Source: Mytilus trossulus (Eukaryota). From it: a DNA stretch of 64,000 bases. The translations under genes were made by a program, and so were the position numbers. The notes below the pieces were generated by a model, which saw only the letters and a list, made by a program, of their open reading frames with translations, was not told the origin of the DNA and made no database searches. This document shows positions 27,601 to 60,755 of the stretch, piece after piece. The stretch spans positions 89,218,001 to 89,282,000 of the forward strand of contig NC_086375.1 in NCBI RefSeq assembly GCF_036588685.1. Reading direction: 5' to 3'. Within the stretch, counting starts at the first letter, position 1, and each line of letters begins with the position of its first letter.

Positions 27601-30600
27601 GTTGTGATCTAAAATGATGAAGAAGCAGCGGTCAAGTGGTGGGAATTTTTTATCCAATACTCTTCGAAGAATCAGTGTCACAGGTACTGAGTTATATATT
27701 TGGGTTGATAATGTTTTTGTGAAGTCTATGTTTTTCTTAATTTTGTATTTTAGTTTTTGAACTTTTGAAATTTCTTTTTTAAAAATGATAAAATTGTTAA
27801 AACGATTTTTTATAATTAGATAAATAGGGGCCCTACAAATAAGATATATAACACTTAACAAATGAATAAACAGGGGTCCTACAAAACAGATAGTTAAACA
27901 AGGGGCCCTACTAATTATATAAATAAACAGGGGTCCTACTAGACAGAAAAACGAACAGGGGTCCTACTAAACAGATAGATAAACAGGGGTCCTACAAAAC
28001 AGATGGATGAACAGGGGCCCTACTAAACAGATAAATAAACAGGGGTCCTACAAGGCAGATGGATGAACAGGGGTCCTACTAAACAGATAGATAAACAGGG
28101 GTCCTACAAAACAGATGGATGAACAGGGGCCTTACTAAACAGATAGAAAAACAGGGATCCTACTAGACAGATAAATAAACAAGGTTCCTACTAAATAGGT
28201 AGATGAACAGGGGTCCTACTAAATAGGTAGATAAACAGGGGTCCAACTAAACAGAAAGATAAACAAGGGTTCTACTGAAGAGATGAATAAACAGGGGCCC
28301 TACTAAACAGATGTATAAACAAGGTTTCTACAAAACAGATGGATAAACGGGGGTCCTACTTAATAAATGAATAAACAGGGGTCATACAAAACAGATAGAT
28401 AAAACAGGGGTCCTACTGAAGAGATGTATAAACAGGGGTCCTTCTAAAAAGATTGATAAGCAGGGGTCCTACTAGACACAGATAAAACAGGGGTCCTACT
28501 GAACAAATGGATAAACATTATGTTTTTTTTATTTTCTTAATCTAACTGTTCTAAAGTGGATTGTAAAATTTAGTTTTGAAATATGTAAACCTGTTTCATT
28601 GAAAAAGATTTGTTTTATAAGCCAACTGAGAGTATTGCTTTGTATAAAATCATTTTGTTTTATATAGTCTGCAATATGATTGTAATTTTCTTACTCTTTT
28701 AACTTTAAATCAATATTACTTTGCATTTCATGTTACTAGGGAATACAATTTTACTCTTTAAAATGCCATTTGGTTATGGATAACCTTTTACAATATTACA
28801 GTTGAACACATTTCCCCCTTCTCAATTAGACTTTTGATCAAAAGATATTTTGATTTAGAAAGGCCAAGAGATCCAATTTACATTGCATCCCCTTATAAAT
28901 ATTCTGTTGACTCTAGATTACTCAATACTCTTTAAAGATTAATACCATCTTTCTAAATGTACAATGTTAAGTCTAAGGAAGGCTAATCATGCTAATTGAA
29001 GATTCAATTCATTATTTCCTTGAATGTGCTATACATGTACATTGGCATGTACACAACTGAAAATTAGTCATAACTTTATTTTTGGCAATGATGCTGTGTC
29101 TAAAGATTAGATATCATTTTTTTTTTCAATAAAACAAAATGTGTATGTTCTTCAACAACAAAAAGTTGTCATTTTTCTTTTTTCTGTAACATACTTTAGT
29201 ATATAACACCATCATGCACTAGAAATGTTCATTTCTTTTCTATTTATTACAATAGATTTTGTTTCCTTTTACATTTAAAACTTTTCTAAACTGGAATGTC
29301 AGGTACATATTTTTTTTTATATTTAATGTTAACGATCATGAGCAGGTGTCCTATTAATGGACATTAGCTGGAATTACATTTTACATGTAAACAGCAGTTC
29401 AGAGAAACAGTAAAATTGAAATAGGAAATATATTAAATATATTGTGGAGTTCCAACATTTATATCCTATTAAACCAAAACGACTAACCACTGACTGTTCT
29501 CTGAAAAAGTATCTAGATAAACCTGGGAAACTTTATTTTAATAGGTTACATCTTGTAAAAGTTTTTAGAAACTTAAAGAACAACATTATAAGCAGTGGCG
29601 GATCCAGAACTTTTCATATGGGGGTCCCTCTCCAGTCATGCTTCAGTGATTCCCTATATAATCAACCAAATTTTTCCGAAAAAGGGGGGGGGGGGGGGGG
29701 CCTGGATCCACCTATGATTAGAATAGCATGCTTTGCATTTTAAAGAAATCTTTCAATAATTCATTCAGAATTTGGTTGGTGCACTAGTTTTCCAGTGGCT
29801 GTCTTTAAATCACCAACCATTTATCTTATTTGAAACTCTGAAGATTCTATAGATAATAAATTGGTCTTTTCCTGACCATAAAAAAAAGAAGATGTTGTAT
29901 GATTGCCAATGAGACAACTGTCCACAAGAAACCAAAATGACACAGACATTAACAATTATAGGTCACCGTACAGCCTTCAACAATGAGTAAAGCCCATACC
30001 ACATAGTCAGCTATAAAAGGCCCCGATAAGACAATGGAAAACAATTCAAACAAGAAAACTAACAGCCCTATTGCTTGAATTATTTGTAAATTGTACTGAA
30101 TGGTAAAAATCAAACAAAATTCCATGTAAAATTTATAAAGTAGTCAGTTTATCAATTTTACACTCAGTCTTAGTTTTAAAAGTTGAGTGTTTGGGACAAT
30201 GCCTATCTTATACAGTCTTATCATTAACAGTTTCTCTTTATATTTCAGGTACTAAGATTACAAGGCTACAGAATGAGAAGCCGGTCATATCATCCCCATC
30301 TAACTTTGAACATACCATCCATGTTGGATTCGATGCTCATACGGGGGAGTTCACGGTAGGTTATTAAACTTTGAACATATCATCCATGTTGGATTTGATG
30401 ATCATACGGGGGAGTTCACAGTAGGTTATCAAACTTTGAACATATCATCCATGTTGGATTTGATGCTCATACGGGGAAGTTCATGGTAGGTTATCAGACC
30501 TTGAACATATCATCCATGTTGGATTTGATGCTCATTCGGGGGAGTTCACAGTAGGTTATCAGATCTTGAACATATCATCCATGTTGGATTTGATGCTCAT

Positions 30601-33600
30601 ACAGGGGAGTTCATGGTAGGTTATCAGCCCAATTGGGAGGGTTCATAGTAGGTTATCAGACTTTGAACATATAGTCCATGTTGGATTTGATGCTCATACG
30701 GGGGAGTTCATGGTAGGTTATCAGCCCAATTGGGAGAGTTCATAGTAGGTGATCAGCCCAATTGGGAGAGTTCATAGTAGGTTATCAGACTTTGAACATA
30801 TAGTCCATGTTGAATTTGATGCTCATAAGGGGGAGTTCACAGTAGGTTATCCGCCCAATCGGGAGAGTTCATAGTAGGTTTTCAGACTTTGAACATATTG
30901 TCCATGTTGGATTTGATGCTCATACGGGGGAGTTCACGGTAGGTTTTAAGCTCTTATGGAGAGTTCACGGTAAGTTATCAGCTCACAAGGAGAGTTCATG
31001 GTAGGATATCAGCTCATACGGGAGCGTTAAGGGTAGGTTATCAGCTCATATCAACAGCATTGAATTAAATCTTTAATTACAAAAAGTAAGTTCCTATATA
31101 TGTTTGCTTTTTAAATGACATCATAAAAAGATATGTTTGAAAAAAGCCTGTTATTAAATTTCTACCAATAGAATCATTCTTCACCAGAAATTTAAGATCA
31201 AATTTTCTAAAATATTTAACTTTTCTTTAATACTTCAAAGAAAGTGACAATCATACTTATTACACATTTTGCAGTGTCCAATCAAATTACTGTATTGATA
31301 AGACTATAGTTTGATATTCTATAGGGCATGCCAGAATCCTGGGCTAAACTATTGTAGTAATAAGACTATAGTTTGATATTTTATATTTCAGGGTATGCCA
31401 GAATCCTGGGCTAAACTACTGTCTCAATCAAACATCTCTAAATCAGAACAAAAGAAGAATCCTCAGGCCGTGTTAGATGTACTCAAATATTATGACACAT
31501 CCACCAAAGAAAAAGATATACAAAAACCTAAATATATGACCAACATTAAACCTCCTAGTAAGTTACTACTTTAAGTGCTGTATAAGGGAGGGAAGGACCT
31601 CTATTATCAAGTGTCAAACACCCTTTATCCAGTACAGTTGGAATCAAATGAACTTAAAAATGTAAATGTCATTTTACAAATTGCATTATTTAGGTACAGT
31701 TAGTATCAAATGGAGTTTACAAACTATATATCATTATTACTTCAAATTAAATGAATCAAAGCTATATCCTTAATTGTCATATCAGGAACCCCTGCCCATT
31801 TCCATCTGCTAGTATATGACTTTAGGTTTAACAATATATAGTTACACATGTGTTTTGCAACTTAAGCATATTAAATGGTTTTGCATCAGAGATATATTCT
31901 ACCACTGCATCAAGTGCGATACAATATTTATCCTCTCAAGACAGTTAAATTTTCAAATTTAAACTCTAGGCTTGCCGAGTGTATTAAATATTTGAAATTT
32001 AACTGTCGACAGTGGATAAATACCAAATTTCACGAGTTTCGGTGGTGGTATCTGTTTCTCTAATGATTTTCAAAAAAACGCCAGAAAACTTATTTCTTTC
32101 GAATGATCTGCAAAAAGATGTGTTCTTTATGTATGATGTCATTAGACATGATTGATGGTCGCTTTTTTCATGCCATCACAATAGTAAATTGAAAAGGAAA
32201 GCAAGAAAATTTGACGTCATAATCGGATTTTAACCAATAAAGAACTGAAATCAAATGAACCCCATGTTGATTACATTTTTTTTACAATGGGTGCAGAAAC
32301 CGATAAAATTGACGAAGAATTAGAGGAACACTTGTTACATGCCTATGAAACCTGGATATATAATTGTATTCTGCTCTGACTGGTGTCTTTCCATCTTATT
32401 CTCTTATCTTCTCCAGTGACATATATACTATTCCTCACTTAACTTTTACACAATGAAATAAGTTAGGTTACTGTTACATGAAAAAAGAACTACCCAACAT
32501 TTCTTTTGAGTTTTTAATACCCTAATTCTTATCCAACTTATGAATTTTAATTACTAAAAAGTAGGCAAAATTTAAAAATATGTATTAGGATAACTCCAGT
32601 ATGCTTCAGAAAATGTTATGAAATTTTTACTGTTTGTTATGTTTTATAAAGACATGGTATCTGTTGATTTTAATTTGATCAGTCATTCCAGTGCTTTGAA
32701 TATTTCATTTGACTAGAACCTACTGTTTACAATATTTTATATAACTTCAGGTGCAGAATCAAGAGGGCCAACCCTATCAGACAAATTTAACTCAAATGTT
32801 ATGATTTCACAGGTAATTCACTTTAGTTTGACCAACAATAAGGTTACAATTGTAAATTGTCACTTTACCATAGTTTAACTTCATTGCATTTCCGTCAAAA
32901 ATTTTGGTTTTAGTGAGTGTCATTCATGTGTTTTTCGAAAGGGAGTCACTTCTGTTCCTATGTTGAGTGATTGGTCAAAAAATGAAAATGCTATATTGTA
33001 CAAATAATTCAGCAAATTAAATTCTTATATTTAGTACTTCAATGCTATTGCTATCTAGATAATAATGGTCTGTCACAAACCTCACATATAACCGCATGCA
33101 CGGACCATAGTTAAAACAGCTATTGTTAAAAAGAAAATCACTTATTTCAAAGATTTCAGAGAATAAAACTTGTATATCTAATAAAATTGAGAATGGAAAT
33201 GGGAAATGTGTCAAAGAGACAACAACCCGAACAAATAAAAAAACAACAGCAGAAGGTCACCAACAGGTTTTCAATGTAGCGAGAAATTCCAGCACCTGTA
33301 AGCATTTATTTTTGTAAGAATGACTTTGATAAATAAACTGAATGTCTTACATATTAATAAGTTTTAAAATTTCATCTTTGTTATTGGTAAAAAAATTGCA
33401 GTAGTCAATTGCTTCAACAATATTCTTGTCTTTCAGCAACCAGCACCAACAGCAAAGCCAGAAAACTCAACAGGGGCCTCGACTCCCGAGGACGACGACG
33501 ATGAGGAAGCACCACCACCCATAGCAACACGGCCTGATAAAACGAAATCAATTGTAAGTGTATAGTATATATAAAAAAAGATATGTACACATGGGACAAC

Positions 33601-60251: not shown

Positions 60252-60755
60252 AATCAATGACAACGGAGATACCACATTTTATAACATTGTATAGAATCAA
60301 TGACAACGGAGATGCCACATTTTATAACATTGTGTAGACTCAATGACAATGGAGATACCACATTTTATAACATTGTATAGAATCAATGACAACGGAGATG
60401 CCACATTTTATAACATTGTGTAGAATCAATGACAATGGAGATGCCACATTTTATAACATTGTGTAGACTCAATGACAATGGAGATGTCTCATTTTATAAC
60501 ATTGTGTAGACTCAATGACAATGGAGATACCACATTTTATAACATTGTGTATAATCAATGACAATGGAGATACCACATTTTATAACATTGTGTATAATCA
60601 ATGACAATGGAGATGTTACATTTTATAACATTGTGTAGAACCAATAACAGCGGAGATGCCACATTTTATAACATTGTGTATAATCAATGACAATGGAGAT
60701 GTCACATTTTATAACATTGTGTAGAACCAATAACAGCGGAGATGCCCCATTTTAT
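60212..60755 (+). repeat. 43-bp tandem array (~12.6 copies) of the last 12 codons plus stop of the TRIM-like gene
   Basis: caatgacaacggagatgccacatttta(c/t)aacattgtgTAGaat; starts at 60212, 60255, 60298 and onward. Confidence 0.95.

Follow-up and report, generated by a model that had tools for sequence, protein, structure and literature searches.

We analyzed a stretch of 64,000 nucleotides from the genome of the mussel Mytilus trossulus (contig NC_086375.1, positions 89,218,001 to 89,282,000 of the forward strand; the whole stretch is called the window below, and all coordinates count from its first base). Five head-to-tail duplications of mutually unrelated sequence were found across edges of coding sequence in the window, four of them at splice sites of a single PAK kinase gene and the fifth over the stop codon of a TRIM-like open reading frame (ORF). 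The two genes are as follows.

21607..41430, plus strand: group I PAK gene of 14 coding exons, recognized from its open 526-codon frame, its match to the public protein P0002, its domains and its GT..AG joints
21607-21668, 25642-25727, 30249-30355, 31392-31557, 32751-32812, 33437-33553, 34266-34435, plus strand: PAK coding exons 1-7
34897-35095, 35516-35608, 36495-36594, 37075-37171, 38060-38159, 40720-40857, 41347-41430, plus strand: PAK coding exons 8-14
58731..60251, plus strand: single-exon B-box / coiled-coil / beta-propeller (TRIM-like) ORF of 506 amino acids, recognized from its homologues and a zf-B_box match

The spliced PAK frame was open and equal in length to P0002, from which it differed at 5 of the 526 residues, and PBD and Pkinase domains were found in P0002. 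Judging from the sequence, the gene is a group I (PAK1-3-like) PAK. Contigs from 4 of the 20 runs listed were aligned to positions 30000-38300, namely those of the DNA runs X1 and X2 and the probable RNA runs X8 and X13 (the assignment to RNA is a guess); X1 is possibly the source sample, and X2 and X13 came from separate studies. Nine GT..AG joints between adjacent PAK exons were present among the 15 joints listed, out of 369, for the probable RNA contigs. The coding splice sites of PAK number 26, or 27 when an alternative first exon is counted, and four of them are affected by duplication, which agrees with the estimate of four in roughly 27 made in an earlier note on this DNA. The alternative first coding exon probably occupies positions 27614-27683; it is in frame with exon 3 and resembles, by eye, the N-terminal end of P0045, a shorter isoform from oyster. 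A contig of X13 stops where exon 3 begins, which is what a branch at that point would produce.

The TRIM-like ORF shared 86% identity with a 506-amino-acid protein of M. edulis and 85% with a protein of M. californianus, and every named match was from Mytilus. The ORF belongs to an expanded Mytilus family, from which its coiled coil is predicted. We regard its stop codon as genuine because the M. edulis relative has the same C-terminus. Most family members (about 559 amino acids) carry an N-terminal part of about 50 residues that is missing from this ORF, as well as from its closest relatives in M. edulis and M. californianus.

The five duplications, and a sixth array that abuts a coding edge, are listed below. 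Arrays were called with Tandem Repeats Finder (TRF), supplemented by gapped self-alignment for the acceptor duplication missed by TRF.

30298..31050, plus strand: minisatellite on the donor of PAK exon 3 (CRIB/PBD), with 65-bp units followed by a 65/32/31-bp mosaic
31284..31422, plus strand: two-copy duplication of the acceptor of PAK exon 4, found by gapped self-alignment
35067..35179, plus strand: 56-bp x2 duplication of the donor of PAK exon 8, found by TRF
36596..36709, plus strand: 34-bp x ~3.3 array abutting the donor of PAK exon 10, found by TRF at 36616-36709 and extended to 36596
37108..37580, plus strand: 97-bp x4.9 array on the donor of PAK exon 11 (activation loop), found by TRF
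60212..60755, plus strand: 43-bp x12.7 array over the stop codon of the TRIM-like ORF, found by TRF, with the last unit partial

All five duplications that the earlier note had placed at coding edges were present. The 65-, 56-, 97- and 43-bp arrays were reported by TRF, and the acceptor duplication (84% identity at an offset of 62-67 bp) was recovered by self-alignment. No array was called in any of three shuffled-sequence controls (0 in 3/3). Each unit of the four PAK arrays combines exon and intron sequence from the two sides of a single boundary. In the CRIB array, the 65-bp unit comprises about 55 nt of exon and 10 nt of intron, and the genuine donor GT at 30356 is followed by 14 donor copies (30421 to 31033), listed by motif, all of which keep the GT. 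The array had been described as built of 65-bp units; this holds for about five units, while the rest is a mosaic of 65-, 32- and 31-bp sub-units. The 56-bp unit contains 29 nt of exon and 27 nt of intron, with the genuine GT at 35096 and a weakened copy at 35152, and the 97-bp unit contains 64 nt of exon, about 22 nt of intron and about 11 nt of filler, with the genuine GT at 37172 and donor copies at 37269, 37366, 37462 and 37559. At the acceptor, the genuine AG lies at 31390-31391, and in the upstream copy (AG at 31323-31324) the pyrimidine tract is 5 nt shorter. Altogether, the GT is intact in 19 of the 19 listed donor copies and the AG is intact in the upstream acceptor copy, but the donor copies share ancestry and those of the CRIB array were picked by motif. 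The seed of the 43-bp array comprises the last 13 codons of the TRIM-like ORF, its stop codon (60249-60251) and 3 nt of the 3' flank. The mussel PAK carries four extra residues directly before the kinase hinge (35060-35090) relative to its oyster, limpet and clam relatives; this insertion is common to P0002 and P0003, and the 56-bp duplication begins within it.

Among all 34 coding boundaries, an echo search picked out the five duplications and, as a weaker sixth, the 34-bp array; at the remaining 28 it detected no tandem echo, old or hidden. The 34-bp array begins at +2 of the exon-10 donor and contains no clear exon sequence; its extension to 36596 rests on 13 matches in 20 positions, and its echo score was equalled by 2.2% of 500 controls. 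It is the only one of these arrays to begin at donor +2, and it does not straddle the boundary. In the straddling arrays, the breakpoints lie 3-64 nt away from the boundaries and none coincides with a splice site. The junctions, assessed by eye, also differ in type: the acceptor duplication has an imperfect microhomology of about 10 nt, the 56-, 65- and 43-bp units have 0-3 nt, and the 97-bp unit has an 11-nt filler. The presence of intron or 3' flank in the units means that DNA, not spliced RNA, was copied.

The earlier note had stressed a consistent polarity, with the coding-side copy intact and the extra copies decaying into non-coding DNA. Such a polarity would follow from geometry, because a duplication that crosses an edge always keeps one copy attached to the exon. 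Decay with distance is clear only in the 97-bp array (2, 1, 2 and 7 mismatches); the CRIB array shows none (4, 4, 5, 5, 5, 7 and 4), and the 43-bp array shows a weak gradient. It is likewise true of the five duplications that no unit length is a multiple of three, yet this carries no signal (P=0.13). In the exon-derived parts of the units, 37 distinct changes were counted. Of the 31 changes not common to all decoys, 11 were synonymous, where 27% was expected (P=0.20); of the 6 common to all decoys, 5 were synonymous. Constraint on the anchored copy with drift in the others would give this pattern. CpG transitions were in excess: 12 CpG sites had undergone 6 of them, and the 31 other changes were spread over 202 sites (P=0.008). 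Gene-body methylation occurs in molluscs.

The authentic splice sites were used in the joints listed for exons 3-4, 8-9 and 11-12; the arrays were skipped and no exon was added. The joint 30355|31392 in X13 connects the first donor of exon 3 to the exon-joined acceptor of exon 4, and the joints 35095|35516 and 37171|38060, both in X8 and X13, use the first donors of exons 8 and 11. No joint to a decoy site was found among the 15 of 369 joints listed, although contigs drop rare forms and minor use is possible. One of the CRIB decoys matches the U1 consensus at 7 of 9 positions, better than the genuine donor at 6 of 9, so that position and not strength decides, as in F7 (below).

Boundary repeats of this kind are known from amphioxus and human. 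In amphioxus, exon-intron boundaries duplicated in tandem, whether at the donor or at the acceptor side, are termed mirages. They have varied units (10-160 bp, with copies 81-100% alike), are spliced normally and are of unclear mechanism, and they were described at Adh3, the globins BflGb6 and BflGb9, troponin C and PGBD5 (PMC3087553, PMC3902484). The human counterparts are variable-number tandem repeats (VNTRs) at boundaries, namely the 37-bp repeat of F7 IVS7, the 31-bp repeat of CBS IVS13, that of the interferon-inducible gene 6-16, the 100-bp repeat of lamin B2 and the 81-bp repeat of PDGF (PMC1557585). In these human minisatellites the first unit spans the exon end and the donor. Splicing takes the most upstream site in F7 (solely so), lamin B2 and PDGF, whereas some pseudo-sites are used in CBS and 6-16 (PMC1557585). 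The PAK arrays conform to this known mirage or F7-type boundary minisatellite pattern. As in amphioxus, boundary-spanning repeats with unrelated units of varied length occur at donors or acceptors and splicing takes place at the authentic site, and as in the human VNTRs, the first unit lies across the exon end and donor with pseudo-donors downstream. The mussel case differs from the available amphioxus accounts in that it concerns a bivalve, with four boundaries in one kinase gene and a stop codon, and in that an apparent length variant was seen at one array end only, that of the CRIB array. The human genes carry one array each, and the portion of the report available describes no acceptor or stop case (PMC1557585). 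The TRIM-like array works alike but spans a stop codon instead of a splice site, and thus falls outside the strict definition of a mirage. Intron gain by tandem genomic duplication has reportedly been proposed (the Rogers model). Boundary internal tandem repeats of human segmental-duplication genes have been tied to new introns in paralogs (PMC2812944), and there, as here, tandem duplication across or near splice signals would be raw material for new introns. Unlike in the intron-gain systems, the exon structure of PAK is intact, with no new intron or exon. Within the open-licence literature, searched by title and start of abstract, no report of bivalve mirages or of a genome-wide test of boundary enrichment was found. 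The window holds a dense bivalve case of a known oddity and a natural test of splice-site choice, with donors and an acceptor in one gene; the PAK arrays are also a warning for annotation and read mapping.

We consider it probable, with moderate confidence, that the five unrelated duplications across coding edges are products of ordinary local slippage or of break repair, tolerated as near-neutral mirage minisatellites. A stretch of 43-97 bp was first duplicated at the level of DNA, as the intron or 3' flank within the units and the breakpoints away from the boundaries show, presumably by such repair, and three of the five pairs have grown further as minisatellites, perhaps through unequal exchange or slippage. 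Duplications wholly within exons would be purged, while those crossing an edge would leave one intact exon-joined copy, and on this geometry the polarity would be fixed. The spliceosome seems to stay with the proximal site, as seen in the joints listed and in keeping with the known preference for the first donor in F7; tolerance would be near-neutral because the exon-joined copy stays in use. The extra copies drift, with CpG decay. The excess of arrays at boundaries in the window would come from longer detectability and retention beside constrained sequence, from dilution of the non-coding background by young transposons and from the choice of the window for this pattern.

The excess was estimated from a catalogue of 22 arrays, 5 of which seemed, on inspection by eye, to lie within transposon-like repeats, and a chance model with uniform seed placement on the collapsed window and wholly exonic seeds barred. 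Tandem arrays cover 15,817 of the 64,000 bases (24.7%), and 12 of the 17 non-transposon arrays touch no boundary. Of the two origins offered in the earlier note, a high rate of local duplication filtered by selection is on these figures the better option, but the roughly 10-fold excess in the window is not fully explained, and a selection filter alone creates no excess. Several results weigh against the account by ordinary slippage and tolerance. Five of the 17 non-transposon arrays straddle a boundary against 0.53 expected (P 1.1e-4), about 10-fold. PAK by itself gives 4 against 0.62 expected (P 0.0016), and for the exon-dense span the figures are 4 and 1.04 (P 0.009); the fitted likelihood weight for boundaries is 14 (range 4.5-39). 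The factors used to correct for detectability and transposon youth were assumed, not measured. A GC bias of the seeds was rejected as the cause of the excess, as the non-boundary arrays have an average GC content of 0.309 against 0.313 in the background. The intact GT in all 19 donor copies also counts against this account, subject to the shared ancestry and motif-based listing noted above. Finally, three contigs of X8 cover position 31363, between the two acceptors of exon 4, the main X8 contig begins at 31395, and no exon 3-4 joint of X8 is among the joints listed, X8 having intronic contigs elsewhere too. The X8 contigs over 31323-31426 could stem from splicing to the upstream acceptor, from an expanded allele or from unspliced material, either RNA or DNA.

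On the other side, the window was picked for this pattern among about 250,000 windows, so that a P near 1e-4 is not decisive. With all 22 arrays the expectation rises to 1.0 (P 0.002). A two-fold greater detectability, or half of the non-coding DNA being too young, each gives P 0.002 when applied alone; both together raise the expectation to 1.9 (P=0.03), and the addition of a GC weight gives P 0.05. The enrichment at exon ends for which the earlier note had proposed a check is present within the window, as a post hoc excess that shrinks to P 0.03-0.05 under conservative corrections.

The 10-fold local excess, together with the sixth abutting array, can alternatively be attributed to a mutational bias where conserved DNA borders variable DNA: in very polymorphic genomes, repair or recombination between divergent alleles would begin in the conserved exon and slip or re-invade at the mismatched intron. 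Duplications would then favour exon ends with or without a splice site, which accounts for the stop-codon case as well. This proposal fits the heterozygosity of 3.27% and wide hemizygosity of Mytilus (PMC11183127) and the occurrence of such repeats at several amphioxus loci with an unclear mechanism (PMC3087553). We nevertheless hold it to be rather unlikely, given that the excess comes from a single post hoc window with no independent mussel loci, that the present data bear no sign of an inter-allelic origin, and that human genes of low polymorphism also carry such arrays (PMC1557585). In metagenome scans, the TRIM-like alignment returned 17 matches to the pattern, none of them a relative; PAK returned 80 loci, none recognizably mussel genomic DNA (the best, at 87% identity, was a transcript-like contig). 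No array lay over any PAK alignment end in those 80 loci (524 kb; 190 ends in the 42 multi-segment loci), where arrays are sparse and the control is accordingly weak. Only tentatively can it be suggested that highly polymorphic marine invertebrates in general duplicate short coding-edge stretches about 10 times more than elsewhere through slippage in divergent-allele repair. If this is true, mirages are a general mutational signature and a steady supply of new splice sites, and mussel genomes make their origin directly testable. Should the excess at boundaries prove genome-wide, it would suggest a mechanism for the formation of mirages and an origin for new splice sites and introns.

It appears improbable that the extra sites serve as functional decoy banks sending part of the PAK pre-mRNA to nonsense-mediated decay (NMD) or giving alternative isoforms, as the earlier note had suggested. 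The retained GT and AG dinucleotides and the X8 contigs between the two acceptors are compatible with such a role, any use of the decoys would lead to an early stop, NMD would mask the transcripts, and some pseudo-sites are used in human CBS and 6-16 (PMC1557585). The stops do occur within the 1-11 codons that had been claimed (codons 4, 10, 2 and 11 upon read-through at the PAK decoy sites), yet a stop is met within 10 codons of read-through at 9 of 13 PAK donors, and 56% of the 2,534 intronic 11-codon windows contain one. We thus rejected early stops as a signal of decoy function, as they are usual for PAK introns. The joints listed use the proximal sites, the G at -1 has been lost in decoys through CpG decay, the changes in the decoys look neutral, and the stop-codon array has no splice role; tuning of PAK output by decoys received no positive support.

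A splicing- or transcription-coupled mechanism that targets splice sites for duplication, the other origin raised in the earlier note, could be read from the four events within one expressed gene and the local boundary excess, but we judge it very improbable, as the straddling arrays never break at a splice site and their offsets vary, the units contain intron DNA and so are not copies of spliced RNA, and in the fifth case a stop codon in a single-exon ORF was duplicated. Such a stop codon is not marked by the splicing machinery. Breakpoints off the boundaries, unlike junctions, the intronless stop case and neutral drift together argue against both splicing-coupled targeting and functional decoys.

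That the arrays are assembly artefacts is scarcely credible. A repeat-rich, heterozygous genome speaks for it, as does the reach of the outside contigs, which take in the end of the CRIB array but neither its interior nor the 43-bp array. Against it, substitutions and indels with a CpG signature distinguish the copies from one another, and contigs of runs from separate studies (X1 possibly being the source sample) cross the acceptor, 56-bp and 97-bp junctions and contain the CRIB array's end. An X1 DNA contig (31257-32123) spans the entire acceptor duplication with 2 differences, the 56-bp junction is bridged by contigs of X1 (35090-35746) and X13 (35090-35352), and the last 97-bp junction by an X2 contig (37416-38080). 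The distal end of the CRIB array is present in X1 and X2 contigs with 15 and 13 gap letters, respectively, apparently a length variant. Short-read contigs do not span whole arrays, and the contig coverage concerns the PAK arrays, the 43-bp array lying outside the mapped region.

Other features of the window lie away from these edges. A DUF229 gene is present as a long single frame at 1098-3155, with no tandem echo at its edges. An open frame of 410 codons (8915-10147, minus strand), reverse-transcriptase-like by eye and without a Pfam match at E 0.001, lies within an insertion resembling a long interspersed nuclear element (LINE). A 43-bp minisatellite at 13250-14361, off coding edges, has a 155-bp interruption and adjoins a LINE-like fragment (by eye), and a 28-bp minisatellite at 27866-28517, also off coding edges, begins 182 bp past the donor of the alternative first exon. 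Arrays with units of 126-166 bp at 38440-39588, 56223-57304, 57711-58179 and 61467-61753 look internal to dispersed transposon-like elements and were counted separately. A satellite at 47138-54909 (7.8 kb) repeats a 24-bp unit about 326 times; it has long stop-free frames on both strands, broken by indels, and is probably non-coding. In the intergenic DNA at 55635-55813, a 43-bp x4.2 array is perfect, which shows such amplification to be recent or ongoing.

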